In this document: piece after piece, positions 7,804 to 38,178 of the stretch
Layout of the letters: every line of letters starts with the position of its first letter
Numbering within the stretch: the first letter of the stretch is position 1
Assembly: GCA_051362555.1 (NCBI GenBank)
Contig: CM120643.1
Span: forward strand, 13,676,644 to 13,740,643
Direction: 5' to 3'
Origin: Lingula anatina
Lineage: Eukaryota > Animalia > Brachiopoda
Length of the DNA: 64,000 nt
Notes under the pieces: model-generated
Seen by the model: the letters and a program-made list of their open reading frames with translations, nothing else
Told to the model about the DNA's origin: nothing
Database searches by the model: none
Program-made: the position numbers and the translations under genes

Positions 7804-7940
7804 CAGGATGTGATATTTTTGTTAGTTTTTTAAAAGTGAAGTTTTATGGAACGATCTGGAAGCAAAGAGATACAATAATTTCTTGGCTTTTTGCAAAAAG
7901 TTAAAACATTTGCGTTTATTAGAGTGTGCAAACCGTTGCC

Positions 7941-11200: not shown

Positions 11201-12596
11201 GGAAATGTATTAGGTTTTTCATTTTATTTTTCAAAGTGTGAAAAGAACCGAAAACTTAATGTTATTGAAGTTCCAATAAAAAAGAAAACGGAGAGTGTGT
11301 TTCTATCTCTTGCGCGTAAAATTCGCATTTCATGCTCTAGTCAAAATTGGTCTAATTTTTACAGTAATATATTTATAATGTATATACAGTGTATGTGGTT
11401 AATAAAAGTATACATGAAACTGTTGACCTTAAGCTCAATAGATTCTATTTCAAAATAAATTCTTTGTTCAAAGACTTAATATCTGTTTTGAATGTAATTA
11501 CTGCGCGCTAATAAAATATTGGCAAACAGCGCGCGTAAGTTTATTTCCAGAAACGTCTTTGTTTCTGATTCATATTTTTAATGTATTCTTATTCCACAAA
11601 TAAAAAGCAAATGCCCCAAACGACTTGTTATTGCTTATCTAAGTTTATGCATTGCCGCTGTAGTTTTCTTACCGAAAAGAAAAGTTTCTTCTTTAAACTT
11701 TATTTCGGGTTCTTAAAAAAAGAAATGTACTAAAAACAAGATACATGTAGTACAATTTATTCTGGATATAAGAAATGCATACAATTTTTAATGCATGTTA
11801 TCGTTTAAAAGCGCGTTATCTTGAAGAATGTTTGTCCTTCATCTGCAAGAAGCACTTGTTAGGGAAGTTGCATAAACACAAAACGACAAAACTTTATATC
11901 TAATACACATAGCAGAAAGGACAATCTGTATAACGAGTGCTTGTTCGAGAAAATATAATGCTAACATTAAATTGAGATAGAAGCGGAAAAGGACGTAGTA
12001 TGAAAATACGTTTCAATATTAGACAAAGAAGTACGTGATATACATGTTGAAAAAAATATACATTCATGGATATTACATTTATGAACATTTTCTCAAAATA
12101 AAGTATCAGTGACTATATCTAAATTATTATCTATTAAAAGTGTTCCTAATTTCCATCATTCGGGTAAAGTATATATTTTGCCAATTTCATTTCTTGTAAC
12201 CCGCTTCATGTCCTGCACAGTATTTTCAGTATAATAAAATGCACAGAAAACAACATATTTTAAACAATGATGGAAGTGTAGACATTTCCCCTTTAATTTA
12301 ACAAGTACTCATATCAAAAGTTCAACTGTCGCAACTTTAAATTGTGAAGCAAAAAAGCGATTATAAGGTCCTGGTGTTACGAGGCTTCAAATTTGATCCT
12401 GATTTTCTTTATCGGTCCTCAGAGTACCAAATCTGGTCTTCTTGCTTATCAGGCCTAAAGACATTTTTCAAAAATGATCCAGTGTTGCCTAACAGATTTA
12501 CTTTCATTCTGGTAAAGAAATATTTGACTGCAGAGCGTTAATTATCGAACGCATCCATTCCATACTAACATGTTAATTCAAGTGAAGTGCAGACAG

Positions 12597-14429
12597 TCAG
12601 CATTGATGGGATAATCGTTCGAATTCGTCCAAACGGTACCAGACTCTGAGGTACCATCTATCGTCAGTGTTGACATACCCTGACATTGTAAGACAAAGTC
12701 GACAAAAACAACAGCAATTAGCACTTGCAGCGCTGTTGTAATATATGGCAAGCTTCTGTAAATTATCAACAATCTCTCTTTGGACGTGGAGCTCTGACAC
12801 GGTGTTCGACATTGTACCAATCATAAAATTCATTATAAGGACTGCAACGAATAAAATGTATATAATGTGCAAAACCAAAAGTACGTGCATTTCTGGTGTG
12901 CCAGGGTCTGCTAACGCGGAAACAACAACCATATTTAGCATGATCTTGAAAGTTGAATAAAACGACACACCAAGGCTACCGAAGTAATCTTCACAGAAGG
13001 GAAGCAGCAGAGTGAAAAACATAAGACTGAATGTCCACATGAAAATACCTAATAGTAACAAGAATTTCGTTAAGTCGCCCAACATGCGCTCGAAAACTAA
13101 TACGTAATACCCTATCTTTGGCAGGAGCTGCATGTAGTAGAGAAAAGTCCATGTGTTCAATAACATTATTGTACTCTGCAACATATATTCGACGTACATG
13201 TGTAACCGCGATGGACTGTGATAATTAATGGCATAATGCACAAATAGGACTATCATTAGAAGGCTCTTCATAAAAGATACTGCGTGCTGCATATTCAAGA
13301 AAGCGATACTTTTTCTGTGCGTACAAAATATAATTTTTCTGAAGCCGAACCCCTTCTTTCTTGTCAAAATTAGGCTTGAAATAAACATTTTAAGTTTTTT
13401 GCCAAAATCTACTACACTTGCCAAAAGAATAAAATTACAAAAAAGAACGAGCACGATCTCGAGAAAGTTGAAAAGAGGATCTGCAGTCAGCTTCTTGCAG
13501 TGAAAAGTGTTATCGGTGCCATTGCCCGAGTCCGATTCATTTTGCGATGAAGCGTTGTACTTGCTTGAACGGAGGCCCATCACGAACATCCAGAATATTG
13601 TGCCATACAGGATCTCACCAAAAACCTCGTAAATCAGATATCGTCTCACCATTTTCCCATAGGTCTGTGTCCAAGCCTTGATAAAAGGGGATCTAAAGAG
13701 GTATTTAGTTTCACTATTCTCTAACTGGGATTCTTCAAGATATATCAAATGATAAAACGGACTTTTTGAAGACCGGCAACCGGAGGTTTCGTGGTAATCT
13801 GAGATGTCATACCACACTTGTTGTTGCAGTGCTGGAGAGGGCTTAGGGTACATGTAAACCCCTTTCGTGTTGAGAATAGTCATCATAAGAGGCAGTGTTC
13901 CAAGGACTGATGTCAACTCAAGTGGGCGCAACCCAATGTCGTTCTCCTGCAACAGCAGTTTTCGTAGTGTAATGAGTGGTACACGTGACTCCAGAATCTT
14001 GTAAATCTTCTGATATTGTTCCATGCGTTCTGGCCACAGTTTACCGGCCCATATCAAAGCGTGAATAGTGTTATTACTAGATTCTGATGATTCTATATCA
14101 ATTCCGGCTGATAGCAGTAAGTGGAAACATCTGATAGATCCTCGCATTACGGCGATCATCAGAGGAAGGCAAAATGTTGGACACTCAATGCTCAAACTAG
14201 GTGCTGGGTCGTGTTGAATGTCAAATGGAGAATTGATGATGAATCTGTCGTTGGTCTGTAAAAGACCGTCTAGTGTTTCGTGGTCATCTTGCAGTAGAGC
14301 CTGCAAATACGCCTCGTATTCTGGCAATGGCAATGAGCGGTTGTTAGAAATTAAAATATCCAGGCAATCCGTTTTGTTTGATTGCGTATCCTTACTTGAA
14401 TGAGCTGAACAGCTCGTCGCCATGGCCAT
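12597..14429 (-). CDS. TRPV-like cation channel paralog, single coding exon (~610 aa from the first ATG at 14429; the ORF-track start at 14444 is TTG)
   Basis: Close paralog of 5914-7803 with the same ankyrin-like, S4-S5, pore and S6 motifs; polypyrimidine-CAG acceptor at 14512-14530. Confidence 0.88.
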   Translation of the reverse strand: MAMATSCSAHSSKDTQSNKTDCLDILISNNRSLPLPEYEAYLQALLQDDHETLDGLLQTNDRFIINSPFDIQHDPAPSLSIECPTFCLPLMIAVMRGSIRCFHLLLSAGIDIESSESSNNTIHALIWAGKLWPERMEQYQKIYKILESRVPLITLRKLLLQENDIGLRPLELTSVLGTLPLMMTILNTKGVYMYPKPSPALQQQVWYDISDYHETSGCRSSKSPFYHLIYLEESQLENSETKYLFRSPFIKAWTQTYGKMVRRYLIYEVFGEILYGTIFWMFVMGLRSSKYNASSQNESDSGNGTDNTFHCKKLTADPLFNFLEIVLVLFCNFILLASVVDFGKKLKMFISSLILTRKKGFGFRKIIFCTHRKSIAFLNMQHAVSFMKSLLMIVLFVHYAINYHSPSRLHMYVEYMLQSTIMLLNTWTFLYYMQLLPKIGYYVLVFERMLGDLTKFLLLLGIFMWTFSLMFFTLLLPFCEDYFGSLGVSFYSTFKIMLNMVVVSALADPGTPEMHVLLVLHIIYILFVAVLIMNFMIGTMSNTVSELHVQREIVDNLQKLAIYYNSAASANCCCFCRLCLTMSGYVNTDDRWYLRVWYRLDEFERLSHQC

Positions 14430-14610
14430 GGTTTCGTTCGTCAAATCAGAGTTAAATCTGTTGTATATTTACATTGGGTTGTCACACTTTAAAAAAACTC
14501 AATGTGACAACCTGGAAACAAAAAAAAATGTAATATAATTAGTGTTTTGTATTGTGGAAGGTATTTTAAAAAGAAAGACACATTATATGGAGAATCATAC
14601 ATATACATGG

Positions 14611-17600: not shown

Positions 17601-18730
17601 CAATCCAACGCCAACGTGCAACAGGGGAAAGTCTGTCAGTGTATTACATAATATATGAAAGTGCGGTCAATATTAACAGTGTAAGACATCAGTTAAAGAG
17701 GAGGGGGTCTTACTATCTTTTGTTAAACGCGACTGTTATTATCTCTCGAACAAGCTTAAACCATGCCTTATACAATAGCGAGAAGCAAGTCGATTATTAT
17801 TAGAATTTATGTGTTGGGGGTGGTGGGCTCATGACCTAGTTAGATTCCACTTTACCAGAATAACACGATTCAGAGCTGGGCCTCTGAGGACGTGTATTTT
17901 TACAGCGCCCCTTGCAGAGTAGACAGCGGCTCTTAGAGTGTGTTAGGCTTTTCGCCTTTATTATGAGAACCACTTGTCTTTGATAGGAAGGTAGGTGTCT
18001 CGCCTGCCTGGTATGAGATACATAGTCATTTATATATGTAGGGTGCCCTGAAAAGGACATTCCGTGCTGAGTAGAGAGCGACTCTTAGAGTGTGTTAGGC
18101 TTCTCGCCTTTATTATAGGGAAAGAACGTCTTTATAAGAGAGTAGGTGTCTCGCCTACTTCGTATGAGATTTATAGATACCGATCTACACTGGGGGCCCT
18201 GAAAAGGGCATTTCGTGATTGGCACAATAGAGGCGTCTCGCCTGTCGAGGGAAGGGGGAGGGTGGACTGGTTGCAGAGTGTTGGGGGTGGTGGGCTCATG
18301 ACCTAGTTAGATTCCACTTTACCAGAATAACACGATTCAGAGCTGGGCCTCTGAGGACGTGTATTTTTACAGCGCCCCTTGCAGAGTAGACAGCGGCTCT
18401 TAGAGTGTGTTAGGCTTTTCGCCTTTATTATGAGAACCACTTGTCTTTGATAGGAAGGTAGGTGTCTCGCCTGCCTGGTATGAGATACATAGTCATTTAT
18501 ATATGTAGGGTGCCCTGAAAAGGACATTCCGTGCTGAGTAGAGAGCGACTCTTAGAGTGTGTTAGGCTTCTCGCCTTTATTATAGGGAAAGAACGTCTTT
18601 ATAAGAGAGTAGGTGTCTCGCCTACTTCGTATGAGATTTATAGATACCGATCTACACTGGGGGCCCTGAAAAGGGCATTTCGTGATTGGCACAATAGAGG
18701 CGTCTCGCCTGTCGAGGGAAGGGGGAGGGT

Positions 18731-18789
18731 GGACTGGTTGCAGAAAGCGCTTTTCGGTCAACAAGTGACCTTCATCAGCTGCAGAGTCC
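18731..18789 (-). ncRNA. Minimal type I hammerhead ribozyme (further minus-strand copies at 21304-21362, 23877-23935, 26450-26508, 32328-32386, 34901-34959; core-mutant copy at 29023-29081)
   Basis: Reverse complement reads GGACU-C-UGCAG CUGAUGA A GGUCA cuugu UGACC GAA AAGCGCUU U^ CUGCA-ACC-AGUCC. Confidence 0.88.
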
Positions 18790-19611
18790 GATTAATAAAA
18801 AAAAGGAAAAATTTAGGGACGTAGGGGCTGGTAAGCAAAGGTGTCTCGCCTTTGTTTAGTAAGTTTTCATCAATGGTGTCTCGCCATTGTGAATGATACG
18901 GGCCATCTCGGCTTTTAAGTATCATGCTTTGTTTAGTGATTTTCATCAATGGTGTCTCGCCATTGTGAATGATACGAGCCATCTCGGCTTTATAGTATCA
19001 TGCTTGATCACAAGTGTCTCGCTTGTGTCAAAGTGGACGGTATGAATCGAGCGTGTGAATGGCTCAAGAGTCGGAGGTCGACTGAGGATTTGTTGAAATT
19101 GTGTCAAATCGAGATCGAGGCCGCGATCTGATTGGTTGTTTCAGTTATGAGTTTTGATTGGCTGTTCTCGTGGTGTATCTTGATCCTATCTGTTTAGATG
19201 TAGTTTATTTGGTTTCATTTTTGGCAAGGTATTTTAACCTCGGATCAAATTTATTAGTATTCTTATGCTGTGCATTTGCGTGTTAACACTGAATTTTCAT
19301 TTGCTAGGATGGTCTGTATAGGTTTCGGGCACCTCTTTTAATTTTGGAAGGCTTTCTCCTTGTTGCTTATAAATAAACTGAGATATCATCTCGCCTTTTA
19401 TTTGCGATGTTTGTGTCTTATAAGTCGATTGTGCCCTGTAAGTGTTTAAAATTTGGTCTAAATGAGATTATGGCATTTTGCTTTATCTCCAGAATGACTT
19501 TTCTTTTCTTTATTGATTATTAATAAGTGTGGGGAAGGCATCTCGCCTTTTATTTGCATTATTGCGCTCTATTTGAACATTCAGGTTTAGCTTTTCCTGG
19601 TAGAAATGGGT

Positions 19612-19627
19612 GGCCCTGAAAAGGGCC
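19612..19627 (-). terminator. Histone-type mRNA 3' stem-loop downstream of the 209-aa ORF (present after all nine ORF copies)
   Basis: Reverse complement AAAAAC-GGCCCTTTTCAGGGCC-ACCCA. Confidence 0.8.
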
Positions 19628-19664
19628 GTTTTTTTCCGAGGACGTAGAAGCAGTGGCTTCTATT

Positions 19665-20294
19665 TTACAGTGTAGTTTTCTTGGCTGAGGTTAGTCTTCG
19701 TTTCACTTTGCTGGCTAGCACGCGGCTCTTCTTCTTGTCCTTCATGGCGAGAATGAGGAGTCTCATTTGCTCCATGATCTGGTTGTTTGTGGTCGTTGAA
19801 GTAGAGGGTTGGTTTCCTGGCGTGTACACGCCGTGGATGTTGAAGTGCTCTTCCGCCCTGGATTCCCTCTCTTCTGCCTTTGCTAAGCTTTCCTTAGCTT
19901 TGTCTACGAAAGCTTGCGTGTGGGCCTCGATCGCGGATTTAAGCTCTGTTGCGGCCTTGTCTTGTATGTTGATCATTGCTGCCAGAAGGATGTCGTCATC
20001 AGGGCACCCCCTGAAGTCTACACGGCATCTGACATGGTGGGCGTTGTTGCTGAGTTGTGTGAGCATGTGGTCTGCCCAGTCAGAGCAGCCTTTCAGGTAA
20101 GCTTTTGCTCTGACGACTTCGTCGTGGTAGGGGTTGCCGTTGACTCCTGGGGGGCCGGCTGTAATTGGCGCCGGTCTCTTGGGGATTCTCCCCCTGGGTG
20201 GTGCAGTGCTATGCCAGTTTTTTGATTCCATATTTCTAGGTTTTTTCCATTCCCTAGGAGATCGTTTTCCTCTGATACTTGTTTGATGATACAT
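19665..20294 (-). CDS. 209-aa element-encoded protein, copy 1 (basic N- and C-termini, helical core)
   Basis: Longest ORF of the unit, ATG start, same strand as the ribozyme, upstream CCAAT/TATA-like motifs, downstream histone stem-loop. Confidence 0.7.
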   Translation of the reverse strand: MYHQTSIRGKRSPREWKKPRNMESKNWHSTAPPRGRIPKRPAPITAGPPGVNGNPYHDEVVRAKAYLKGCSDWADHMLTQLSNNAHHVRCRVDFRGCPDDDILLAAMINIQDKAATELKSAIEAHTQAFVDKAKESLAKAEERESRAEEHFNIHGVYTPGNQPSTSTTTNNQIMEQMRLLILAMKDKKKSRVLASKVKRRLTSAKKTTL

Positions 20295-22237
20295 AGTGAG
20301 CGCGTTGTGAAAGAAATTGCTGTATTGCCAGACTTATGCCTTCCATTGAGAGTGTGCTGCTTTAAGTGTACACCCTGCTGAGGGGAGCACCGACGTTAAG
20401 GAGCTATGTGGTGTTGTGTGCTTCCCGTTGATTCTAAAAGTGTGTCATTAAGGAGCTTTGTGATTGGCTGATTGTCAAGCCATTGTCCGGTGTCTTATGT
20501 CTTGACTATTCAAGAATGTATGCACAGAATCCCCCGACAAGTGTAAATTTTGGTTTTAGTGGTTGTTTGTCAGGTTTTCTTGGTTATTACTATTGTTCCC
20601 TAGTGAGTAATAGGAACGTAGTTGTCTCGCCTACGTGGTATGTGATTATCATTATCATATGTCCGTGTATTATGGTACATAGATCATTTTGTTCCTTGTG
20701 ATCCGTAGGTTAAGGCGTGTTCCGATAAAGCAGAAAAAACCCCGTCACGCCAGTACCCAAAACACTAGCTACAAAGTAACCAGTGTTAAGGGACGGTTCC
20801 CGGTTCGGACAGTCCCACATTGCGGCCGGCCCCAGGGCCAAATAGCTTAAGTGTTGGGGGTGGTGGGCTCATGACCTAGTTAGATTCCACTTTACCAGAA
20901 TAACACGATTCAGAGCTGGGCCTCTGAGGACGTGTATTTTTACAGCGCCCCTTGCAGAGTAGACAGCGGCTCTTAGAGTGTGTTAGGCTTTTCGCCTTTA
21001 TTATGAGAACCACTTGTCTTTGATAGGAAGGTAGGTGTCTCGCCTGCCTGGTATGAGATACATAGTCATTTATATATGTAGGGTGCCCTGAAAAGGACAT
21101 TCCGTGCTGAGTAGAGAGCGACTCTTAGAGTGTGTTAGGCTTCTCGCCTTTATTATAGGGAAAGAACGTCTTTATAAGAGAGTAGGTGTCTCGCCTACTT
21201 CGTATGAGATTTATAGATACCGATCTACACTGGGGGCCCTGAAAAGGGCATTTCGTGATTGGCACAATAGAGGCGTCTCGCCTGTCGAGGGAAGGGGGAG
21301 GGTGGACTGGTTGCAGAAAGCGCTTTTCGGTCAACAAGTGACCTTCATCAGCTGCAGAGTCCGATTAATAAAAAAAAGGAAAAATTTAGGGACGTAGGGG
21401 CTGGTAAGCAAAGGTGTCTCGCCTTTGTTTAGTAAGTTTTCATCAATGGTGTCTCGCCATTGTGAATGATACGGGCCATCTCGGCTTTTAAGTATCATGC
21501 TTTGTTTAGTGATTTTCATCAATGGTGTCTCGCCATTGTGAATGATACGAGCCATCTCGGCTTTATAGTATCATGCTTGATCACAAGTGTCTCGCTTGTG
21601 TCAAAGTGGACGGTATGAATCGAGCGTGTGAATGGCTCAAGAGTCGGAGGTCGACTGAGGATTTGTTGAAATTGTGTCAAATCGAGATCGAGGCCGCGAT
21701 CTGATTGGTTGTTTCAGTTATGAGTTTTGATTGGCTGTTCTCGTGGTGTATCTTGATCCTATCTGTTTAGATGTAGTTTATTTGGTTTCATTTTTGGCAA
21801 GGTATTTTAACCTCGGATCAAATTTATTAGTATTCTTATGCTGTGCATTTGCGTGTTAACACTGAATTTTCATTTGCTAGGATGGTCTGTATAGGTTTCG
21901 GGCACCTCTTTTAATTTTGGAAGGCTTTCTCCTTGTTGCTTATAAATAAACTGAGATATCATCTCGCCTTTTATTTGCGATGTTTGTGTCTTATAAGTCG
22001 ATTGTGCCCTGTAAGTGTTTAAAATTTGGTCTAAATGAGATTATGGCATTTTGCTTTATCTCCAGAATGACTTTTCTTTTCTTTATTGATTATTAATAAG
22101 TGTGGGGAAGGCATCTCGCCTTTTATTTGCATTATTGCGCTCTATTTGAACATTCAGGTTTAGCTTTTCCTGGTAGAAATGGGTGGCCCTGAAAAGGGCC
22201 GTTTTTTTCCGAGGACGTAGAAGCAGTGGCTTCTATT

Positions 22238-22867
22238 TTACAGTGTAGTTTTCTTGGCTGAGGTTAGTCTTCGTTTCACTTTGCTGGCTAGCACGCGGCT
22301 CTTCTTCTTGTCCTTCATGGCGAGAATGAGGAGTCTCATTTGCTCCATGATCTGGTTGTTTGTGGTCGTTGAAGTAGAGGGTTGGTTTCCTGGCGTGTAC
22401 ACGCCGTGGATGTTGAAGTGCTCTTCCGCCCTGGATTCCCTCTCTTCTGCCTTTGCTAAGCTTTCCTTAGCTTTGTCTACGAAAGCTTGCGTGTGGGCCT
22501 CGATCGCGGATTTAAGCTCTGTTGCGGCCTTGTCTTGTATGTTGATCATTGCTGCCAGAAGGATGTCGTCATCAGGGCACCCCCTGAAGTCTACACGGCA
22601 TCTGACATGGTGGGCGTTGTTGCTGAGTTGTGTGAGCATGTGGTCTGCCCAGTCAGAGCAGCCTTTCAGGTAAGCTTTTGCTCTGACGACTTCGTCGTGG
22701 TAGGGGTTGCCGTTGACTCCTGGGGGGCCGGCTGTAATTGGCGCCGGTCTCTTGGGGATTCTCCCCCTGGGTGGTGCAGTGCTATGCCAGTTTTTTGATT
22801 CCATATTTCTAGGTTTTTTCCATTCCCTAGGAGATCGTTTTCCTCTGATACTTGTTTGATGATACAT
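22238..22867 (-). CDS. 209-aa element-encoded protein, copy 2
   Basis: Translation identical to copy 1. Confidence 0.7.
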   Translation of the reverse strand: MYHQTSIRGKRSPREWKKPRNMESKNWHSTAPPRGRIPKRPAPITAGPPGVNGNPYHDEVVRAKAYLKGCSDWADHMLTQLSNNAHHVRCRVDFRGCPDDDILLAAMINIQDKAATELKSAIEAHTQAFVDKAKESLAKAEERESRAEEHFNIHGVYTPGNQPSTSTTTNNQIMEQMRLLILAMKDKKKSRVLASKVKRRLTSAKKTTL

Positions 22868-24810
22868 AGTGAGCGCGTTGTGAAAGAAATTGCTGTATTG
22901 CCAGACTTATGCCTTCCATTGAGAGTGTGCTGCTTTAAGTATACACCCTGCTGAGGGGAGCACCGACGTTAAGGAGCTATGTGGTGTTGTGTGCTTCCCG
23001 TTGATTCTAAAAGTGTGTCATTAAGGAGCTTTGTGATTGGCTGATTGTCAAGCCATTGTCCGGTGTCTTATGTCTTGACTATTCAAGAATGTATGCACAG
23101 AATCCCCCGACAAGTGTAAATTTTGGTTTTAGTGGTTGTTTGTCAGGTTTTCTTGGTTATTACTATTGTTCCCTAGTGAGTAATAGGAACGTAGTTGTCT
23201 CGCCTACGTGGTATGTGATTATCATTATCATATGTCCGTGTATTATGGTACATAGATCATTTTGTTCCTTGTGATCCGTAGGTTAAGGCGTGTTCCGATA
23301 AAGCAGAAAAAACCCCGTCACGCCAGTACCCAAAACACTAGCTACAAAGTAACCAGTGTTAAGGGACGGTTCCCGGTTCGGACAGTCCCACATTGCGGCC
23401 GGCCCCAGGGCCAAATAGCTTAAGTGTTGGGGGTGGTGGGCTCATGACCTAGTTAGATTCCACTTTACCAGAATAACACGATTCAGAGCTGGGCCTCTGA
23501 GGACGTGTATTTTTACAGCGCCCCTTGCAGAGTAGACAGCGGCTCTTAGAGTGTGTTAGGCTTTTCGCCTTTATTATGAGAACCACTTGTCTTTGATAGG
23601 AAGGTAGGTGTCTCGCCTGCCTGGTATGAGATACATAGTCATTTATATATGTAGGGTGCCCTGAAAAGGACATTCCGTGCTGAGTAGAGAGCGACTCTTA
23701 GAGTGTGTTAGGCTTCTCGCCTTTATTATAGGGAAAGAACGTCTTTATAAGAGAGTAGGTGTCTCGCCTACTTCGTATGAGATTTATAGATACCGATCTA
23801 CACTGGGGGCCCTGAAAAGGGCATTTCGTGATTGGCACAATAGAGGCGTCTCGCCTGTCGAGGGAAGGGGGAGGGTGGACTGGTTGCAGAAAGCGCTTTT
23901 CGGTCAACAAGTGACCTTCATCAGCTGCAGAGTCCGATTAATAAAAAAAAGGAAAAATTTAGGGACGTAGGGGCTGGTAAGCAAAGGTGTCTCGCCTTTG
24001 TTTAGTAAGTTTTCATCAATGGTGTCTCGCCATTGTGAATGATACGGGCCATCTCGGCTTTTAAGTATCATGCTTTGTTTAGTGATTTTCATCAATGGTG
24101 TCTCGCCATTGTGAATGATACGAGCCATCTCGGCTTTATAGTATCATGCTTGATCACAAGTGTCTCGCTTGTGTCAAAGTGGACGGTATGAATCGAGCGT
24201 GTGAATGGCTCAAGAGTCGGAGGTCGACTGAGGATTTGTTGAAATTGTGTCAAATCGAGATCGAGGCCGCGATCTGATTGGTTGTTTCAGTTATGAGTTT
24301 TGATTGGCTGTTCTCGTGGTGTATCTTGATCCTATCTGTTTAGATGTAGTTTATTTGGTTTCATTTTTGGCAAGGTATTTTAACCTCGGATCAAATTTAT
24401 TAGTATTCTTATGCTGTGCATTTGCGTGTTAACACTGAATTTTCATTTGCTAGGATGGTCTGTATAGGTTTCGGGCACCTCTTTTAATTTTGGAAGGCTT
24501 TCTCCTTGTTGCTTATAAATAAACTGAGATATCATCTCGCCTTTTATTTGCGATGTTTGTGTCTTATAAGTCGATTGTGCCCTGTAAGTGTTTAAAATTT
24601 GGTCTAAATGAGATTATGGCATTTTGCTTTATCTCCAGAATGACTTTTCTTTTCTTTATTGATTATTAATAAGTGTGGGGAAGGCATCTCGCCTTTTATT
24701 TGCATTATTGCGCTCTATTTGAACATTCAGGTTTAGCTTTTCCTGGTAGAAATGGGTGGCCCTGAAAAGGGCCGTTTTTTTCCGAGGACGTAGAAGCAGT
24801 GGCTTCTATT

Positions 24811-25440
24811 TTACAGTGTAGTTTTCTTGGCTGAGGTTAGTCTTCGTTTCACTTTGCTGGCTAGCACGCGGCTCTTCTTCTTGTCCTTCATGGCGAGAAT
24901 GAGGAGTCTCATTTGCTCCATGATCTGGTTGTTTGTGGTCGTTGAAGTAGAGGGTTGGTTTCCTGGCGTGTACACGCCGTGGATGTTGAAGTGCTCTTCC
25001 GCCCTGGATTCCCTCTCTTCTGCCTTTGCTAAGCTTTCCTTAGCTTTGTCTACGAAAGCTTGCGTGTGGGCCTCGATCGCGGATTTAAGCTCTGTTGCGG
25101 CCTTGTCTTGTATGTTGATCATTGCTGCCAGAAGGATGTCGTCATCAGGGCACCCCCTGAAGTCTACACGGCATCTGACATGGTGGGCGTTGTTGCTGAG
25201 TTGTGTGAGCATGTGGTCTGCCCAGTCAGAGCAGCCTTTCAGGTAAGCTTTTGCTCTGACGACTTCGTCGTGGTAGGGGTTGCCGTTGACTCCTGGGGGG
25301 CCGGCTGTAATTGGCGCCGGTCTCTTGGGGATTCTCCCCCTGGGTGGTGCAGTGCTATGCCAGTTTTTTGATTCCATATTTCTAGGTTTTTTCCATTCCC
25401 TAGGAGATCGTTTTCCTCTGATACTTGTTTGATGATACAT
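24811..25440 (-). CDS. 209-aa element-encoded protein, copy 3
   Basis: Translation identical to copy 1. Confidence 0.7.
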   Translation of the reverse strand: MYHQTSIRGKRSPREWKKPRNMESKNWHSTAPPRGRIPKRPAPITAGPPGVNGNPYHDEVVRAKAYLKGCSDWADHMLTQLSNNAHHVRCRVDFRGCPDDDILLAAMINIQDKAATELKSAIEAHTQAFVDKAKESLAKAEERESRAEEHFNIHGVYTPGNQPSTSTTTNNQIMEQMRLLILAMKDKKKSRVLASKVKRRLTSAKKTTL

Positions 25441-27383
25441 AGTGAGCGCGTTGTGAAAGAAATTGCTGTATTGCCAGACTTATGCCTTCCATTGAGAGTG
25501 TGCTGCTTTAAGTATACACCCTGCTGAGGGGAGCACCGACGTTAAGGAGCTATGTGGTGTTGTGTGCTTCCCGTTGATTCTAAAAGTGTGTCATTAAGGA
25601 GCTTTGTGATTGGCTGATTGTCAAGCCATTGTCCGGTGTCTTATGTCTTGACTATTCAAGAATGTATGCACAGAATCCCCCGACAAGTGTAAATTTTGGT
25701 TTTAGTGGTTGTTTGTCAGGTTTTCTTGGTTATTACTATTGTTCCCTAGTGAGTAATAGGAACGTAGTTGTCTCGCCTACGTGGTATGTGATTATCATTA
25801 TCATATGTCCGTGTATTATGGTACATAGATCATTTTGTTCCTTGTGATCCGTAGGTTAAGGCGTGTTCCGATAAAGCAGAAAAAACCCCGTCACGCCAGT
25901 ACCCAAAACACTAGCTACAAAGTAACCAGTGTTAAGGGACGGTTCCCGGTTCGGACAGTCCCACATTGCGGCCGGCCCCAGGGCCAAATAGCTTAAGTGT
26001 TGGGGGTGGTGGGCTCATGACCTAGTTAGATTCCACTTTACCAGAATAACACGATTCAGAGCTGGGCCTCTGAGGACGTGTATTTTTACAGCGCCCCTTG
26101 CAGAGTAGACAGCGGCTCTTAGAGTGTGTTAGGCTTTTCGCCTTTATTATGAGAACCACTTGTCTTTGATAGGAAGGTAGGTGTCTCGCCTGCCTGGTAT
26201 GAGATACATAGTCATTTATATATGTAGGGTGCCCTGAAAAGGACATTCCGTGCTGAGTAGAGAGCGACTCTTAGAGTGTGTTAGGCTTCTCGCCTTTATT
26301 ATAGGGAAAGAACGTCTTTATAAGAGAGTAGGTGTCTCGCCTACTTCGTATGAGATTTATAGATACCGATCTACACTGGGGGCCCTGAAAAGGGCATTTC
26401 GTGATTGGCACAATAGAGGCGTCTCGCCTGTCGAGGGAAGGGGGAGGGTGGACTGGTTGCAGAAAGCGCTTTTCGGTCAACAAGTGACCTTCATCAGCTG
26501 CAGAGTCCGATTAATAAGAAAAAGGAAAAATTTAGGGACGTAGGGGCTGGTAAGCAAAGGTGTCTCGCCTTTGTTTAGTAAGTTTTCATCAATGGTGTCT
26601 CGCCATTGTGAATGATACGGGCCATCTCGGCTTTTAAGTATCATGCTTTGTTTAGTGATTTTCATCAATGGTGTCTCGCCATTGTGAATGATACGAGCCA
26701 TCTCGGCTTTATAGTATCATGCTTGATCACAAGTGTCTCGCTTGTGTCAAAGTGGACGGTATGAATCGAGCGTGTGAATGGCTCAAGAGTCGGAGGTCGA
26801 CTGAGGATTTGTTGAAATTGTGTCAAATCGAGATCGAGGCCGCGATCTGATTGGTTGTTTCAGTTATGAGTTTTGATTGGCTGTTCTCGTGGTGTATCTT
26901 GATCCTATCTGTTTAGATGTAGTTTATTTGGTTTCATTTTTGGCAAGGTATTTTAACCTCGGATCAAATTTATTAGTATTCTTATGCTGTGCATTTGCGT
27001 GTTAACACTGAATTTTCATTTGCTAGGATGGTCTGTATAGGTTTCGGGCACCTCTTTTAATTTTGGAAGGCTTTCTCCTTGTTGCTTATAAATAAACTGA
27101 GATATCATCTCGCCTTTTATTTGCGATGTTTGTGTCTTATAAGTCGATTGTGCCCTGTAAGTGTTTAAAATTTGGTCTAAATGAGATTATGGCATTTTGC
27201 TTTATCTCCAGAATGACTTTTCTTTTCTTTATTGATTATTAATAAGTGTGGGGAAGGCATCTCGCCTTTTATTTGCATTATTGCGCTCTATTTGAACATT
27301 CAGGTTTAGCTTTTCCTGGTAGAAATGGGTGGCCCTGAAAAGGGCCGTTTTTTTCCGAGGACGTAGAAGCAGTGGCTTCTATT

Positions 27384-28013
27384 TTACAGTGTAGTTTTCT
27401 TGGCTGAGGTTAGTCTTCGTTTCACTTTGCTGGCTAGCACGCGGCTCTTCTTCTTGTCCTTCATGGCGAGAATGAGGAGTCTCATTTGCTCCATGATCTG
27501 GTTGTTTGTGGTCGTTGAAGTAGAGGGTTGGTTTCCTGGCGTGTACACGCCGTGGATGTTGAAGTGCTCTTCCGCCCTGGATTCCCTCTCTTCTGCCTTT
27601 GCTAAGCTTTCCTTAGCTTTGTCTACGAAAGCTTGCGTGTGGGCCTCGATCGCGGATTTAAGCTCTGTTGCGGCCTTGTCTTGTATGTTGATCATTGCTG
27701 CCAGAAGGATGTCGTCATCAGGGCACCCCCTGAAGTCTACACGGCATCTGACATGGTGGGCGTTGTTGCTGAGTTGTGTGAGCATGTGGTCTGCCCAGTC
27801 AGAGCAGCCTTTCAGGTAAGCTTTTGCTCTGACGACTTCGTCGTGGTAGGGGTTGCCGTTGACTCCTGGGGGGCCGGCTGTAATTGGCGCCGGTCTCTTG
27901 GGGATTCTCCCCCTGGGTGGTGCAGTGCTATGCCAGTTTTTTGATTCCATATTTCTAGGTTTTTTCCATTCCCTAGGAGATCGTTTTCCTCTGATACTTG
28001 TTTGATGATACAT
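27384..28013 (-). CDS. 209-aa element-encoded protein, copy 4
   Basis: Translation identical to copy 1. Confidence 0.7.
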   Translation of the reverse strand: MYHQTSIRGKRSPREWKKPRNMESKNWHSTAPPRGRIPKRPAPITAGPPGVNGNPYHDEVVRAKAYLKGCSDWADHMLTQLSNNAHHVRCRVDFRGCPDDDILLAAMINIQDKAATELKSAIEAHTQAFVDKAKESLAKAEERESRAEEHFNIHGVYTPGNQPSTSTTTNNQIMEQMRLLILAMKDKKKSRVLASKVKRRLTSAKKTTL

Positions 28014-30289
28014 AGTGAGCGCGTTGTGAAAGAAATTGCTGTATTGCCAGACTTATGCCTTCCATTGAGAGTGTGCTGCTTTAAGTATACACCCTGCTGA
28101 GGGGAGCACCGACGTTAAGGAGCTATGTGGTGTTGTGTGCTTCCCGTTGATTCTAAAAGTGTGTCATTAAGGAGCTTTGTGATTGGCTGATTGTCAAGCC
28201 ATTGTCCGGTGTCTTATGTCTTGACTATTCAAGAATGTATGCACAGAATCCCCCGACAAGTGTAAATTTTGGTTTTAGTGGTTGTTTGTCAGGTTTTCTT
28301 GGTTATTACTATTGTTCCCTAGTGAGTAATAGGAACGTAGTTGTCTCGCCTACGTGGTATGTGATTATCATTATCATATGTCCGTGTATTATGGTACATA
28401 GATCATTTTGTTCCTTGTGATCCGTAGGTTAAGGCGTGTTCCGATAAAGCAGAAAAAACCCCGTCACGCCAGTACCCAAAACACTAGCTACAAAGTAACC
28501 AGTGTTAAGGGACGGTTCCCGGTTCGGACAGTCCCACATTGCGGCCGGCCCCAGGGCCAAATAGCTTAAGTGTTGGGGGTGGTGGGCTCATGACCTAGTT
28601 AGATTCCACTTTACCAGAATAACACGATTCAGAGCTGGGCCTCTGAGGACGTGTATTTTTACAGCGCCCCTTGCAGAGTAGACAGCGGCTCTTAGAGTGT
28701 GTTAGGCTTTTCGCCTTTATTATGAGAACCACTTGTCTTTGATAGGAAGGTAGGTGTCTCGCCTGCCTGGTATGAGATACATAGTCATTTATATATGTAG
28801 GGTGCCCTGAAAAGGACATTCCGTGCTGAGTAGAGAGCGACTCTTAGAGTGTGTTAGGCTTCTCGCCTTTATTATAGGGAAAGAACGTCTTTATAAGAGA
28901 GTAGGTGTCTCGCCTACTTCGTATGAGATTTATAGATACCGATCTACACTGGGGGCCCTGAAAAGGGCATTTCGTGATTGGCACAATAGAGGCGTCTCGC
29001 CTGTCGAGGGAAGGGGGAGGGTGGACTGGTTGCAGAAAGCGCTATTCGGTCAACAAGTGACCTTCATCAGCTGCAGAGTCCGATTAATAAAAAAAAGGAA
29101 AAATTTAGGGACGTAGGGGCTGGTAAGCAAAGGTGTCTCGCCTTTGTTTAGTAAGTTTTCATCAATGGTGTCTCGCCATTGTGAATGATACGGGCCATCT
29201 CGGCTTTTAAGTATCATGCTTTGTTTAGTGATTTTCATCAATGGTGTCTCGCCATTGTGAATGATACGAGCCATCTCGGCTTTATAGTATCATGCTTGAT
29301 CACAAGTGTCTCGCTTGTGTCAAAGTGGACGGTATGAATCGAGCGTGTGAATGGCTCAAGAGTCGGAGGTCGACTGAGGATTTGTTGAAATTGTGTCAAA
29401 TCGAGATCGAGGCCGCGATCTGATTGGTTGTTTCAGTTATGAGTTTTGATTGGCTGTTCTCGTGGTGTATCTTGATCCTATCTGTTTAGATGTAGTTTAT
29501 TTGGTTTCATTTTTGGCAAGGTATTTTAACCTCGGATCAAATTTATTAGTATTCTTATGCTGTGCATTTGCGTGTTAACACTGAATTTTCATTTGCTAGG
29601 ATGGTCTGTATAGGTTTCGGGCACCTCTTTTAATTTTGGAAGGCTTTCTCCTTGTTGCTTATAAATAAACTGAGATATCATCTCGCCTTTTATTTGCGAT
29701 GTTTGTGTCCCTCAAGTGTTGGGGGTGGTGGGCTCATGACCTAGTTAGATTCCACTTTACCAGAATAACACGATTCAGAGCTGGGCCTCTGAGGACGTGT
29801 ATTTTTACAGCGCCCCTTGCAGAGTAGACAGCGGCTCTTAGAGTGTGTTAGGCTTTTCGCCTTTATTATGAGAACCACTTGTCTTTGATAGGAAGGTAGG
29901 TGTCTCGCCTGCCTGGTATGAGATACATAGTCATTTATATATGTAGGGTGCCCTGAAAAGGACATTCCGTGCTGAGTAGAGAGCGACTCTTATAGTGTGT
30001 TAGGCTTCTCGCCTTTATTATAGGGAAAGAACGTCTTTATAAGAGAGTAGGTGTCTCGCCTACTTCGTATGAGATTTATAGATACCGATCTACACTGGGG
30101 GCCCTGAAAAGGGCATTTCGTGATTGGCACAATAGAGGCGTCTCGCCTGTCGAGGGAAGGGGGAGGGTGGACTGGTTGCAGAAAGCGCTTTTCGGTCAAC
30201 CCTCAGCAGGGTGTATACTTAAAGCAGCACACTCTCAATGGAAGGCATAAGTCTGGCAATACAGCAATTTCTTTCACAACGCGCTCACT

Positions 30290-30919
30290 ATGTATCATCA
30301 AACAAGTATCAGAGGAAAACGATCTCCTAGGGAATGGAAAAAACCTAGAAATATGGAATCAAAAAACTGGCATAGCACTGCACCACCCAGGGGGAGAATC
30401 CCCAAGAGACCGGCGCCAATTACAGCCGGCCCCCCAGGAGTCAACGGCAACCCCTACCACGACGAAGTCGTCAGAGCAAAAGCTTACCTGAAAGGCTGCT
30501 CTGACTGGGCAGACCACATGCTCACACAACTCAGCAACAACGCCCACCATGTCAGATGCCGTGTAGACTTCAGGGGGTGCCCTGATGACGACATCCTTCT
30601 GGCAGCAATGATCAACATACAAGACAAGGCCGCAACAGAGCTTAAATCCGCGATCGAGGCCCACACGCAAGCTTTCGTAGACAAAGCTAAGGAAAGCTTA
30701 GCAAAGGCAGAAGAGAGGGAATCCAGGGCGGAAGAGCACTTCAACATCCACGGCGTGTACACGCCAGGAAACCAACCCTCTACTTCAACGACCACAAACA
30801 ACCAGATCATGGAGCAAATGAGACTCCTCATTCTCGCCATGAAGGACAAGAAGAAGAGCCGCGTGCTAGCCAGCAAAGTGAAACGAAGACTAACCTCAGC
30901 CAAGAAAACTACACTGTAA
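30290..30919 (+). CDS. 209-aa element-encoded protein, copy 5 (in an inverted partial unit lacking the upstream CCAAT box)
   Basis: Translation identical to copy 1. Confidence 0.65.
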   Translation: MYHQTSIRGKRSPREWKKPRNMESKNWHSTAPPRGRIPKRPAPITAGPPGVNGNPYHDEVVRAKAYLKGCSDWADHMLTQLSNNAHHVRCRVDFRGCPDDDILLAAMINIQDKAATELKSAIEAHTQAFVDKAKESLAKAEERESRAEEHFNIHGVYTPGNQPSTSTTTNNQIMEQMRLLILAMKDKKKSRVLASKVKRRLTSAKKTTL

Positions 30920-30956
30920 AATAGAAGCCACTGCTTCTACGTCCTCGGAAAAAAAC

Positions 30957-30995
30957 GGCCCTTTTCAGGGCCACCCATTTCTACCAGGAAAAGCT
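30957..30995 (+). terminator. Histone-type 3' stem-loop plus candidate purine-rich histone downstream element (also at 38846 and 41419)
   Basis: GGCCCTTTTCAGGGCC at 30957-30972, ACCCA at 30973-30977, CAGGAAAAGCT at 30985-30995. Confidence 0.8.
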
Positions 30996-31794
30996 AAACC
31001 TGAATGTTCAAATAGAGCGCAATAATGCAAATAAAAGGCGAGATGCCTTCCCCACACTTATTAATAATCAATAAAGAAAAGAAAAGTCATTCTGGAGATA
31101 AAGCAAAATGCCATAATCTCATTTAGACCAAATTTTAAACACTTACAGGGCACAATCGACTTATAAGACACAAACATCGCAAATAAAAGGCGAGATGATA
31201 TCTCAGTTTATTTATAAGCAACAAGGAGAAAGCCTTCCAAAATTAAAAGAGGTGCCCGAAACCTATACAGACCATCCTAGCAAATGAAAATTCAGTGTTA
31301 ACACGCAAATGCACAGCATAAGAATACTAATAAATTTGATCCGAGGTTAAAATACCTTGCCAAAAATGAAACCAAATAAACTACATCTAAACAGATAGGA
31401 TCAAGATACACCACGAGAACAGCCAATCAAAACTCATAACTGAAACAACCAATCAGATCGCGGCCTCGATCTCGATTTGACACAATTTCAACAAATCCTC
31501 AGTCGACCTCCGACTCTTGAGCCATTCACACGCTCGATTCATACCGTCCACTTTGACACAAGCGAGACACTTGTGATCAAGCATGATACTATAAAGCCGA
31601 GATGGCTCGTATCATTCACAATGGCGAGACACCATTGATGAAAATCACTAAACAAAGCATGATACTTAAAAGCCGAGATGGCCCGTATCATTCACAATGG
31701 CGAGACACCATTGATGAAAACTTACTAAACAAAGGCGAGACACCTTTGCTTACCAGCCCCTACGTCCCTAAATTTTTCCTTTTTTTTATTAATC

Positions 31795-31853
31795 GGACTC
31801 TGCAGCTGATGAAGGTCACTTGTTGACCGAAAAGCGCTTTCTGCAACCAGTCC
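31795..31853 (+). ncRNA. Minimal type I hammerhead ribozyme (further plus-strand copies at 39684-39742, 42257-42315, 43041-43099)
   Basis: Stem I TGCAG(31801-05)/CTGCA(31841-45) extended by GGACT/AGTCC; core CTGATGA 31806-12; stem II GGTCA/TGACC; GAAA; palindromic stem III AAGCGCTT; predicted cut after 31840. Confidence 0.88.
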
Positions 31854-33261
31854 ACCCTCCCCCTTCCCTTATAAGTGTTGGGGGTGGTGGGCTCATGACC
31901 TAGTTAGATTCCACTTTACCAGAATAACACGATTCAGAGCTGGGCCTCTGAGGACGTGTATTTTTACAGCGCCCCTTGCAGAGTAGACAGCGGCTCTTAG
32001 AGTGTGTTAGGCTTTTCGCCTTTATTATGAGAACCACTTGTCTTTGATAGGAAGGTAGGTGTCTCGCCTGCCTGGTATGAGATACATAGTCATTTATATA
32101 TGTAGGGTGCCCTGAAAAGGACATTCCGTGCTGAGTAGAGAGCGACTCTTAGAGTGTGTTAGGCTTCTCGCCTTTATTATAGGGAAAGAACGTCTTTATA
32201 AGAGAGTAGGTGTCTCGCCTACTTCGTATGAGATTTATAGATACCGATCTACACTGGGGGCCCTGAAAAGGGCATTTCGTGATTGGCACAATAGAGGCGT
32301 CTCGCCTGTCGAGGGAAGGGGGAGGGTGGACTGGTTGCAGAAAGCGCTTTTCGGTCAACAAGTGACCTTCATCAGCTGCAGAGTCCGATTAATAAAAAAA
32401 AGGAAAAATTTAGGGACGTAGGGGCTGGTAAGCAAAGGTGTCTCGCCTTTGTTTAGTAAGTTTTCATCAATGGTGTCTCGCCATTGTGAATGATACGGGC
32501 CATCTCGGCTTTTAAGTATCATGCTTTGTTTAGTGATTTTCATCAATGGTGTCTCGCCATTGTGAATGATACGAGCCATCTCGGCTTTATAGTATCATGC
32601 TTGATCACAAGTGTCTCGCTTGTGTCAAAGTGGACGGTATGAATCGAGCGTGTGAATGGCTCAAGAGTCGGAGGTCGACTGAGGATTTGTTGAAATTGTG
32701 TCAAATCGAGATCGAGGCCGCGATCTGATTGGTTGTTTCAGTTATGAGTTTTGATTGGCTGTTCTCGTGGTGTATCTTGATCCTATCTGTTTAGATGTAG
32801 TTTATTTGGTTTCATTTTTGGCAAGGTATTTTAACCTCGGATCAAATTTATTAGTATTCTTATGCTGTGCATTTGCGTGTTAACACTGAATTTTCATTTG
32901 CTAGGATGGTCTGTATAGGTTTCGGGCACCTCTTTTAATTTTGGAAGGCTTTCTCCTTGTTGCTTATAAATAAACTGAGATATCATCTCGCCTTTTATTT
33001 GCGATGTTTGTGTCTTATAAGTCGATTGTGCCCTGTAAGTGTTTAAAATTTGGTCTAAATGAGATTATGGCATTTTGCTTTATCTCCAGAATGACTTTTC
33101 TTTTCTTTATTGATTATTAATAAGTGTGGGGAAGGCATCTCGCCTTTTATTTGCATTATTGCGCTCTATTTGAACATTCAGGTTTAGCTTTTCCTGGTAG
33201 AAATGGGTGGCCCTGAAAAGGGCCGTTTTTTTCCGAGGACGTAGAAGCAGTGGCTTCTATT

Positions 33262-33891
33262 TTACAGTGTAGTTTTCTTGGCTGAGGTTAGTCTTCGTTT
33301 CACTTTGCTGGCTAGCACGCGGCTCTTCTTCTTGTCCTTCATGGCGAGAATGAGGAGTCTCATTTGCTCCATGATCTGGTTGTTTGTGGTCGTTGAAGTA
33401 GAGGGTTGGTTTCCTGGCGTGTACACGCCGTGGATGTTGAAGTGCTCTTCCGCCCTGGATTCCCTCTCTTCTGCCTTTGCTAAGCTTTCCTTAGCTTTGT
33501 CTACGAAAGCTTGCGTGTGGGCCTCGATCGCGGATTTAAGCTCTGTTGCGGCCTTGTCTTGTATGTTGATCATTGCTGCCAGAAGGATGTCGTCATCAGG
33601 GCACCCCCTGAAGTCTACACGGCATCTGACATGGTGGGCGTTGTTGCTGAGTTGTGTGAGCATGTGGTCTGCCCAGTCAGAGCAGCCTTTCAGGTAAGCT
33701 TTTGCTCTGACGACTTCGTCGTGGTAGGGGTTGCCGTTGACTCCTGGGGGGCCGGCTGTAATTGGCGCCGGTCTCTTGGGGATTCTCCCCCTGGGTGGTG
33801 CAGTGCTATGCCAGTTTTTTGATTCCATATTTCTAGGTTTTTTCCATTCCCTAGGAGATCGTTTTCCTCTGATACTTGTTTGATGATACAT
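33262..33891 (-). CDS. 209-aa element-encoded protein, copy 6
   Basis: Translation identical to copy 1. Confidence 0.7.
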   Translation of the reverse strand: MYHQTSIRGKRSPREWKKPRNMESKNWHSTAPPRGRIPKRPAPITAGPPGVNGNPYHDEVVRAKAYLKGCSDWADHMLTQLSNNAHHVRCRVDFRGCPDDDILLAAMINIQDKAATELKSAIEAHTQAFVDKAKESLAKAEERESRAEEHFNIHGVYTPGNQPSTSTTTNNQIMEQMRLLILAMKDKKKSRVLASKVKRRLTSAKKTTL

Positions 33892-35834
33892 AGTGAGCGC
33901 GTTGTGAAAGAAATTGCTGTATTGCCAGACTTATGCCTTCCATTGAGAGTGTGCTGCTTTAAGTATACACCCTGCTGAGGGGAGCACCGACGTTAAGGAG
34001 CTATGTGGTGTTGTGTGCTTCCCGTTGATTCTAAAAGTGTGTCATTAAGGAGCTTTGTGATTGGCTGATTGTCAAGCCATTGTCCGGTGTCTTATGTCTT
34101 GACTATTCAAGAATGTATGCACAGAATCCCCCGACAAGTGTAAATTTTGGTTTTAGTGGTTGTTTGTCAGGTTTTCTTGGTTATTACTATTGTTCCCTAG
34201 TGAGTAATAGGAACGTAGTTGTCTCGCCTACGTGGTATGTGATTATCATTATCATATGTCCGTGTATTATGGTACATAGATCATTTTGTTCCTTGTGATC
34301 CGTAGGTTAAGGCGTGTTCCGATAAAGCAGAAAAAACCCCGTCACGCCAGTACCCAAAACACTAGCTACAAAGTAACCAGTGTTAAGGGACGGTTCCCGG
34401 TTCGGACAGTCCCACATTGCGGCCGGCCCCAGGGCCAAATAGCTTAAGTGTTGGGGGTGGTGGGCTCATGACCTAGTTAGATTCCACTTTACCAGAATAA
34501 CACGATTCAGAGCTGGGCCTCTGAGGACGTGTATTTTTACAGCGCCCCTTGCAGAGTAGACAGCGGCTCTTAGAGTGTGTTAGGCTTTTCGCCTTTATTA
34601 TGAGAACCACTTGTCTTTGATAGGAAGGTAGGTGTCTCGCCTGCCTGGTATGAGATACATAGTCATTTATATATGTAGGGTGCCCTGAAAAGGACATTCC
34701 GTGCTGAGTAGAGAGCGACTCTTAGAGTGTGTTAGGCTTCTCGCCTTTATTATAGGGAAAGAACGTCTTTATAAGAGAGTAGGTGTCTCGCCTACTTCGT
34801 ATGAGATTTATAGATACCGATCTACACTGGGGGCCCTGAAAAGGGCATTTCGTGATTGGCACAATAGAGGCGTCTCGCCTGTCGAGGGAAGGGGGAGGGT
34901 GGACTGGTTGCAGAAAGCGCTTTTCGGTCAACAAGTGACCTTCATCAGCTGCAGAGTCCGATTAATAAAAAAAAGGAAAAATTTAGGGACGTAGGGGCTG
35001 GTAAGCAAAGGTGTCTCGCCTTTGTTTAGTAAGTTTTCATCAATGGTGTCTCGCCATTGTGAATGATACGGGCCATCTCGGCTTTTAAGTATCATGCTTT
35101 GTTTAGTGATTTTCATCAATGGTGTCTCGCCATTGTGAATGATACGAGCCATCTCGGCTTTATAGTATCATGCTTGATCACAAGTGTCTCGCTTGTGTCA
35201 AAGTGGACGGTATGAATCGAGCGTGTGAATGGCTCAAGAGTCGGAGGTCGACTGAGGATTTGTTGAAATTGTGTCAAATCGAGATCGAGGCCGCGATCTG
35301 ATTGGTTGTTTCAGTTATGAGTTTTGATTGGCTGTTCTCGTGGTGTATCTTGATCCTATCTGTTTAGATGTAGTTTATTTGGTTTCATTTTTGGCAAGGT
35401 ATTTTAACCTCGGATCAAATTTATTAGTATTCTTATGCTGTGCATTTGCGTGTTAACACTGAATTTTCATTTGCTAGGATGGTCTGTATAGGTTTCGGGC
35501 ACCTCTTTTAATTTTGGAAGGCTTTCTCCTTGTTGCTTATAAATAAACTGAGATATCATCTCGCCTTTTATTTGCGATGTTTGTGTCTTATAAGTCGATT
35601 GTGCCCTGTAAGTGTTTAAAATTTGGTCTAAATGAGATTATGGCATTTTGCTTTATCTCCAGAATGACTTTTCTTTTCTTTATTGATTATTAATAAGTGT
35701 GGGGAAGGCATCTCGCCTTTTATTTGCATTATTGCGCTCTATTTGAACATTCAGGTTTAGCTTTTCCTGGTAGAAATGGGTGGCCCTGAAAAGGGCCGTT
35801 TTTTTCCGAGGACGTAGAAGCAGTGGCTTCTATT

Positions 35835-38003: not shown

Positions 38004-38112
38004 AGCCAATCACAAAGCTCCTTAATGACACACTTTTAGAATCAACGGGAAGCACACAACACCACATAGCTCCTTAACGTCGGTGCTCCCCTCAGCAGGG
38101 TGTATACTTAAA
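38004..38112 (+). promoter_or_regulatory. Candidate Pol II promoter of the element ORF (CCAAT box plus TATA-like motif)
   Basis: AGCCAATCA at 38004-38012, AGCTCCTTAA twice, TATACTTAAA at 38103-38112, about 70 nt before the ATG at 38179; motif match only. Confidence 0.4.
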
Positions 38113-38178
38113 GCAGCACACTCTCAATGGAAGGCATAAGTCTGGCAATACAGCAATTTCTTTCACAACGCGCTCACT

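Follow-up and report, generated by a model that had tools for sequence, protein, structure and literature searches.

Probable insertion by a Penelope-like element of a hammerhead-bearing, apparently coding tandem unit in the genome of Lingula anatina

How does one 2,573-nucleotide (nt) unit come to occupy a single site in seven pieces, six of which start at the same point and the longest of which holds 4.44 head-to-tail copies? The question is raised by a 64,000-nt stretch of the genome of the brachiopod Lingula anatina (assembly GCA_051362555.1, contig CM120643.1, positions 13,676,644 to 13,740,643, forward strand), hereafter the window, in which the initial annotation had recognised a signature of rolling-circle reverse transcription. 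I consider it very probable that the array was inserted by reverse transcriptase (RT) and endonuclease machinery of the Penelope-like element (PLE) type. With some reserve, I favour a recent single event in which such an enzyme, acting in trans, inserted all seven pieces, with both cut linear and circular RNAs probably serving as templates.

Aligned with itself and mapped exactly onto one real unit (20851-23423, 2,573 nt), the block at 17811-43552, 25,742 nt long, resolves into the run structure that had been claimed.

17811 to 43552, no strand assigned: whole insertion, 25,742 nt, two head-to-head arms joined at 37364
17811 to 18276, minus strand: run 1, 466 nt, from the putative fixed RT start to the predicted hammerhead cut (467 nt with the ambiguous base 18277)
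18278 to 29709, minus strand: run 2, 11,432 nt, 4.44 units without a break, crossing the cut site five times
29710 to 29715, no strand assigned: filler, its first five letters equal to the start of the inverted piece
29716 to 30200, minus strand: run 3, 485 nt, its far end within stem II of the hammerhead
30201 to 31869 (mapped 30200-31869, 1,670 nt), plus strand: inverted piece, an RNA-sense copy of unit positions 2107 to 438, open reading frame (ORF) and hammerhead included
31875 to 37364, minus strand: run 5, 5,490 nt, 2.13 units
37364 to 42768, plus strand: run 6, right arm, 5,405 nt, 2.10 units
42771 to 43552, plus strand: run 7, first piece of the right arm, 782 nt

The run lengths first given (467, 11,432, 485, 5,490 and 5,405 nt) stand; only the 784 nt given for run 7 had counted a 2-nt filler. 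The fillers are as described (CCTCAA at 29710-15, TATAA at 31870-74, AT at 42769-70). As had also been claimed, a fixed AC-rich start is common to six of the seven pieces, the inverted piece being the exception, and the seam between units recurs identically eight times, six times on one strand and twice on the other. The six starts deviate from one site by 0-3 nt. The whole insertion is 99.98% uniform, with four substitutions in 25,742 nt (20368, 26518, 29044 and 29993), each private to one copy; shared variant blocks, named by the initial annotation as a mark of recombinational expansion, are absent among the copies. As both outer ends of the block are start sites, it consists of two arms, joined head-to-head at 37364, where they overlap by 1 nt. 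In the long runs the cut site is crossed 11 times flawlessly, and every jump returns to the start site with filler. The last one, two and three letters before the start site (18277, 29714-15 and 31872-74, respectively) match the RNA continuing past the start, and to judge from this match the filler may be partly templated by RNA beyond it. Repeated re-priming at one internal site with template jumps, as originally proposed, is well supported and fits the mechanism described in vitro for a Penelope-like protein (PMC11167929).

The inverted piece opens with a hexamer that each unit holds once (20384) and with which the 29710 filler begins as well (29709-29714, 30200-30205), so that the same template point was used twice; lying 83 nt behind a CCAAT box, it could be a transcription start. 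Two numerical coincidences, seen post hoc and probably due to chance, concern the same block: the RT start is 466 nt away both from the twice-used point, on its 3' side, and from the cut, on its 5' side, and the block minus its fillers comes within 1-2 nt of ten units, though the partial pieces do not tile the unit.

The start site, the ribozyme and the target ends are placed as follows.

18278 to 18294 (also 20851-20867 and other copies), minus strand: AC-only 17-mer at the fixed terminus, putative internal RT start site
20728 to 20850, minus strand: the 123 nt that directly follow the RT start on its 3' side, with predicted pairing to the AC-rich site (fold z -2.0), kept in a variant from sequencing run X9 that is without the next 424 nt
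18739 to 18783, minus strand: minimal type I hammerhead, 5-base-pair stems I and II, intact core, palindromic helix III, predicted cut at 18744/18743
17804 to 17810, plus strand: left target end, AAT plus four extra letters
43553 to 43555, plus strand: right target end, AAT, a candidate 3-nt target duplication, from the letters before 43553 in a contig of run X10

All 17 terminal letters are A or C (17/17), and the RNA continues past the start. The hammerhead, overlooked in the initial annotation, was found by reading the sequence and with a descriptor of my own, which finds it once per unit, on one strand only, in ten intact copies, with nothing else in the window and no hit in 1000 shuffles. 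An Rfam scan detected no ribozyme in the unit, this one included. In a dimer co-fold prediction two copies pair through the palindromic helix III, and the hammerheads of PLEs are likewise minimal and take a dimer form through this helix (PMC4209133). The private substitution at 29044 is core position A15.1 of the fifth copy in run 2. The predicted cut lies 466 nt upstream of the RT start, and an RNA circle would be joined there and not at the seam, which was therefore rejected as ligation point; as far as the letters tell, the seam is the RT start. HDV-like (hepatitis delta virus) and twister readings of the seam, made by eye, were dropped, having neither Rfam support nor a full motif. The ends opposite to the fixed starts had been called ragged, which does not hold for run 1, as its far end sits at the predicted cut (18276, with base 18277 ambiguous).

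The PAc protein of a PLE cuts both target strands with a preference for ATT and extends both, and its reverse transcription starts inside an AC-rich stem-loop and needs RNA 3' of the start (PMC11167929). Here AAT/ATT closes both target ends. None of the ORFs scanned with Pfam in array and flanks (13 and 39) encodes an RT or a GIY-YIG domain, and the longest ORF of the unit (209 amino acids, aa) has no Pfam match, so that the unit lacks the telomerase-like RT and GIY-YIG that mark an autonomous PLE. Because no RT is encoded in the unit, it is likely that a Penelope-like enzyme acting in trans mobilises it.

Sequencing runs from other individuals show that the fixed end is not peculiar to this locus. 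At the right junction, contigs end at the terminus and continue into mixed flanks in all four DNA runs (2, 4, 5 and 4 contigs, agreement 0.53-0.63), which makes the fixed end a family trait; four RNA reads of X15 also share the terminus, with a flank ending in ATT. Flank contigs of X1, X5 and X10 begin at 43553, preceded by 7, 7 and 35 non-element letters, respectively. None of the seven X1 records, all of them listed, bridges the insertion junction; for X5, X9 and X10 the junction results hold among the records listed. Over 9 nt ending with AAT the X10 letters agree with the left flank, from which a 3-nt duplication follows, with four extra letters on the left. The insertion is real and young, and likely polymorphic and of PLE type. 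In X9, two contigs end with mixed loose letters at 21316, which corresponds to the end of run 1 and is the base immediately 3' of the predicted cut. The family also varies: an X9 variant has 424 nt (20303-20728) replaced by 15 letters, and an X10 seam variant has other letters right after the terminus and the same sequence behind. Summed contig depth in X9 reaches 8,000-12,000 in the terminus and hammerhead bins versus 78-280 over the ORF which, depth being a poor measure of copy number, suggests that the ends are common and the coding middle rare.

From which RNAs were the runs copied? That run 1 stops at the predicted cut points to at least one cut linear template, as a monomer cut at both hammerheads would give a complementary DNA (cDNA) of exactly 466 nt, which is run 1. 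The long runs cross the same site flawlessly and their jumps all go to the start with filler, which requires continuous templates, either circles or uncut multimers. A circular template has been proposed for PLEs in 2014 (PMC4209133) and for animal retrozymes in 2020 (PMC7229834), and I lean towards an RNA circle as template of the long runs, because a hammerhead that acts as a dimer should cleave multimers but leave monomeric circles intact, and because seamless runs could not outgrow their parent without either circles or DNA recombination. The circular template of the initial annotation is thus plausible; however, an uncut multimeric transcript fits the same runs, as was allowed there.

An insertion of the same PLE type in which an array already present supplied uncut multimeric transcripts as templates of the long runs, without a circle, is possible but rather unlikely. 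It would require a transcript of at least 11.4 kb that runs past five dimerisable hammerheads and four histone-type 3' signals; the first growth of seamless arrays would go unexplained, and run 1 stops at the cut. Source arrays may nevertheless exist, as in X1 an exact match to the terminal 153 nt has about seven times the depth of the flank contig (79 versus 12, again a poor copy measure).

Several observations weigh against circles, or against other parts of the favoured reading. Uncut RNA is the main PAc substrate in vitro, and no reads ending at the cut are reported there (PMC11167929), while minimal hammerheads cleave weakly in vitro (PMC4209133). Eleven passes versus one stop at the cut site also fit weakly cleaving multimers. 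The cleavage triplet of this hammerhead is UUU, which is a slow one. Five of the seven piece ends fall within unit positions 259-485, so that judged from the locus alone a chance hit at the cut has a roughly estimated frequency of about 6 in 100. The X10 contig that gives the target duplication shows 9 differences in 204 letters and could stem from a paralogous copy of the target. Metagenome and viral contigs, scanned by pattern and by protein, yielded nothing, a PLE partner included. Against a conserved role of the ORF speaks X9, where its 12 changes (among 40 of 154 difference rows) are five silent, six replacement and one nonsense, the latter in a copy that is also without 424 nt upstream. 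In three RNA runs, sampled at 6, 6 and 25 in 100 (9.5, 12.4 and 11.1 million reads), 22, 96 and 48 reads fall on the element with no pile of starts or ends, at a depth too low to tell. Over the ORF, X12 depth is at most 5, and nearly all pairs have the first mate on the minus strand, which under most stranded protocols means antisense to the ORF. The circle, the cleavage and the RT partner are all inferred from sequence. As for expression, the RNA reads are too few to show or exclude it, and no RNA run was listed as carrying the unit in a sequencing-run search; two of the RNA libraries are poly(A)/oligo-dT selected, which would lose circles and histone-type messenger RNAs (mRNAs).

Alternatively, the array may have grown at the DNA level. 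A direct repeat, such as any run longer than one unit, can gain whole units while keeping both ends, and partial tandems just over one unit, left by a PLE, could have been lengthened later by unequal crossing-over or slippage, or inflated in the assembly. The initial annotation was right that unequal crossing-over leaves the shared terminus unexplained, but since crossing-over could add whole units, 4.44 units alone are no proof of rolling-circle copying. This route has been discussed for retrozyme arrays (bioRxiv 10.64898/2026.07.22.740005), and the unit counts are those of the assembly. I nevertheless regard later lengthening as improbable, as three runs with different ends each exceed two units, the insertion is 99.98% uniform and missing from other sequencing runs, and no variants are shared.

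Helitron-like elements, whose ends are a 5' TC and a 3' hairpin followed by CTRR, are likewise expected to show one fixed end, tandem copies and AT-rich targets. All three traits are present here, and they would also suit a non-autonomous DNA transposon of the rolling-circle kind in which one end is fixed and the other varies. However, those terminal motifs are not at the terminus, and the stop at a ribozyme cut, arms primed from opposite strands and restarts with filler are features of an RNA template, which leaves a Helitron-like origin very improbable.

What, then, does the unit carry, if it encodes no RT? It has a single long ORF, followed by histone-type signals.

19665 to 20231, minus strand: ORF of 188 aa, or 209 aa from an in-frame ATG at 20294, a predicted helical hairpin with one distant relative, P0002
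19588 to 19632, minus strand: histone 3' stem-loop, 36 nt after the stop codon, Rfam RF00032 at 38 bits (gathering threshold 34), nine copies
18663 to 18678, minus strand: second histone-like hairpin, degenerate and below the Rfam threshold, at 65 nt behind the cut of the hammerhead
18512 to 18527, minus strand: third, degenerate histone-like hairpin, within a 151-nt internal repeat

At 209 aa the ORF is longer than those of all 500 shuffles (maximum 191), and at 188 aa longer than those of 499 of the 500. The sole relative among 1.84 billion representatives is P0002, 170 aa from a Logan contig, with 29% identity over 154 residues (E 5e-7). No other protein was found by a word-indexed search at near length or, using the two-sequence alignment, at longer length, nor was there a match in Pfam, PDB sequences or the ESM Atlas. 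A model built from these two sequences shows a helical hairpin at residues 34-133 with a mean predicted local distance difference test score (pLDDT) of 63; Foldseek against the PDB gave no fold match, the best at E 0.31 being generic helical hairpins such as Vipp1, which I do not count as evidence. The product is predicted to be a coiled-coil protein, most likely an RNA-binding or dimerising helper, and my best guess by analogy is a helper like the N-terminal helical dimer region of PAc (PMC11167929). Behind the stem-loop a purine-rich stretch follows at 12 nt, the downstream element being judged by eye against the consensus; with both elements present, a histone-type 3' end is predicted for the ORF mRNA. 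The sense strand has 11 occurrences of the hexamer GCGAGA versus 0.44 expected, partly due to internal repeats.

The size of the ORF, its coiled coil and its basic tail resemble delta antigens, and the circular fold of the unit (-658 kcal/mol) beats all 12 shuffles (-565 to -596 kcal/mol), although global shuffles inflate this difference. An integrated delta-like or viroid-like coding RNA circle, with the ORF as delta-antigen analogue, is nevertheless highly improbable: there is no rod, the paired fraction being 0.53 as in the shuffles, the hammerhead is present in one polarity only, the ORF has no Pfam or PDB match, and the scattered genomic copies have PLE-like ends. A more specific version of the favoured PLE insertion, which I put forward only tentatively, is that of a coding retrozyme, a ribozyme-processed RNA circle of 2.57 kb that borrows a Penelope enzyme for its rolling-circle reverse transcription and supplies its own helper from a histone-type, non-polyadenylated mRNA. 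If true, its activity would be tied to the histone (S-phase or oocyte) pathway.

The favoured course of events would then be this. Tandem copies would be transcribed, and dimer-forming hammerheads would cut the RNA into monomers, some of which might be ligated to circles that the monomeric motif could not cut again. The enzyme would nick both target strands 3' of AAT/ATT, as suggested by the junctions and by PAc (PMC11167929), and both 3' ends would prime cDNA at the internal AC-rich site, where synthesis restarts six times at this locus. A cut linear monomer would yield the 466-nt run 1 and circles the seamless runs of 2.1-4.4 units, one switch to a cDNA template would give the inverted piece, and the two arms would be joined at 37364 over the 1-nt overlap. 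The ORF is predicted to have a short mRNA of its own, whose 3' end is of the histone type. One young locus records six priming events, one stop at a ribozyme cut and 11 read-throughs, and as it gives the RNA size, the cut site and the RT start, the long-proposed circular-template step becomes directly testable.

The flanks of the insertion are animal-like, with four long ankyrin/ion-channel ORFs, uninterrupted over 612-635 codons (5914-7821, 12597-14468, 47730-49568 on the minus strand and 52903-54783 on the plus strand). Pfam finds Ion_trans in three of them (E 9e-10, 0.002 and 1e-8) and weak ankyrin matches in three. Together they make up a group of clustered, intronless genes for TRP-like channels, and a diverged duplication of about 6.6 kb holds the first two; with a flanking channel ORF as query, no homologue was recovered at E 1e-20. 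A WD40 repeat match at 62439-62648 (minus strand, E 9e-6) is likely to mark an exon that belongs to a host gene nearby. The insertion site lies between the two halves of a perfect 15-nt inverted repeat (17774-17788 and 43742-43756), the array having landed in an inverted-repeat element of about 250 nt that resembles a miniature inverted-repeat transposable element (MITE) and itself lies within a high-copy repeat. All four DNA runs show this high-copy repeat without the interruption (loose ends at 43772).

Among known systems, the mechanism class is already described: non-autonomous multicopy PLEs and pLTR gene cargo are known, and circular templates have been proposed in print. With Penelope/Poseidon PLEs the unit shares the AC-rich internal RT start, the ATT-type target, the priming of both strands, partial tandems, a minimal palindromic hammerhead upstream of the start and a length of about 3 kb (PMC11167929, PMC4209133); it differs in lacking RT and GIY-YIG and in reaching 4.4 seamless units. 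The distance from cut to start is 466 nt versus about 85-92 nt in PAc (PMC11167929), and the optional end tail of 30-40 nt in PLEs has no counterpart here, where all starts fall within the 0-3 nt given above. The pattern of PLE-mobilised DNA, a partial tandem and head-to-head insertion with fixed 3' and truncated 5' ends (PMC8557442, PMC3846280), is present. Chlamys PLEs such as MRC1 are also non-autonomous and multicopy head-to-tail, with 3' ends shared with autonomous PLEs (a Chlamys feature), but they belong to green algae and mostly lack hammerheads, and the sections of PMC8557442 on these elements describe no coding cargo. Adineta vaga Penelopes likewise move unrelated coding DNA in trans as pLTR cargo, with a head-to-head inverted structure and a short target duplication, but as single copies of known host genes (PMC3846280), whereas here an orphan ORF is amplified as a repeat unit.

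Metazoan non-LTR (non-long terminal repeat) retrozymes are similar in that their tandem units are non-autonomous, carry a single type I hammerhead and are proposed to move by way of RNA circles and PLE enzymes (PMC7229834, PMC7761336, bioRxiv 10.64898/2026.07.22.740005), the in vivo role of minimal hammerheads being called unknown (PMC7761336). Their units, however, measure 150 to about 1000 nt, are described in these sources as small and non-coding, and mostly carry canonical hammerheads, whereas this unit has 2,573 nt, a minimal hammerhead, a histone stem-loop and a 209-aa ORF with a relative at 29% identity. Retrozymes are further marked by abundant circular RNA and by self-cleavage; for this unit the three RNA runs gave the few reads stated above. 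Among titles and abstract openings I found no account of a histone stem-loop in such elements, and the supplementary families of bioRxiv 10.64898/2026.07.22.740005 might include long or coding units. With the 3' end of replication-dependent histone mRNAs (RF00032) the unit shares the canonical 16-nt stem-loop shortly after the stop codon and the purine-rich stretch behind it, but the ORF is not a histone (no Pfam match), and its 3' end, which would place the end of the mRNA just after the stem-loop and call for SLBP and U7, is a prediction. What appears to be new is a coding, histone-ended cargo in a retrozyme-like unit together with a genomic footprint of ribozyme cleavage, which suggests that a conserved orphan gene whose 3' end is of the histone type can be part of retrozyme-like units.

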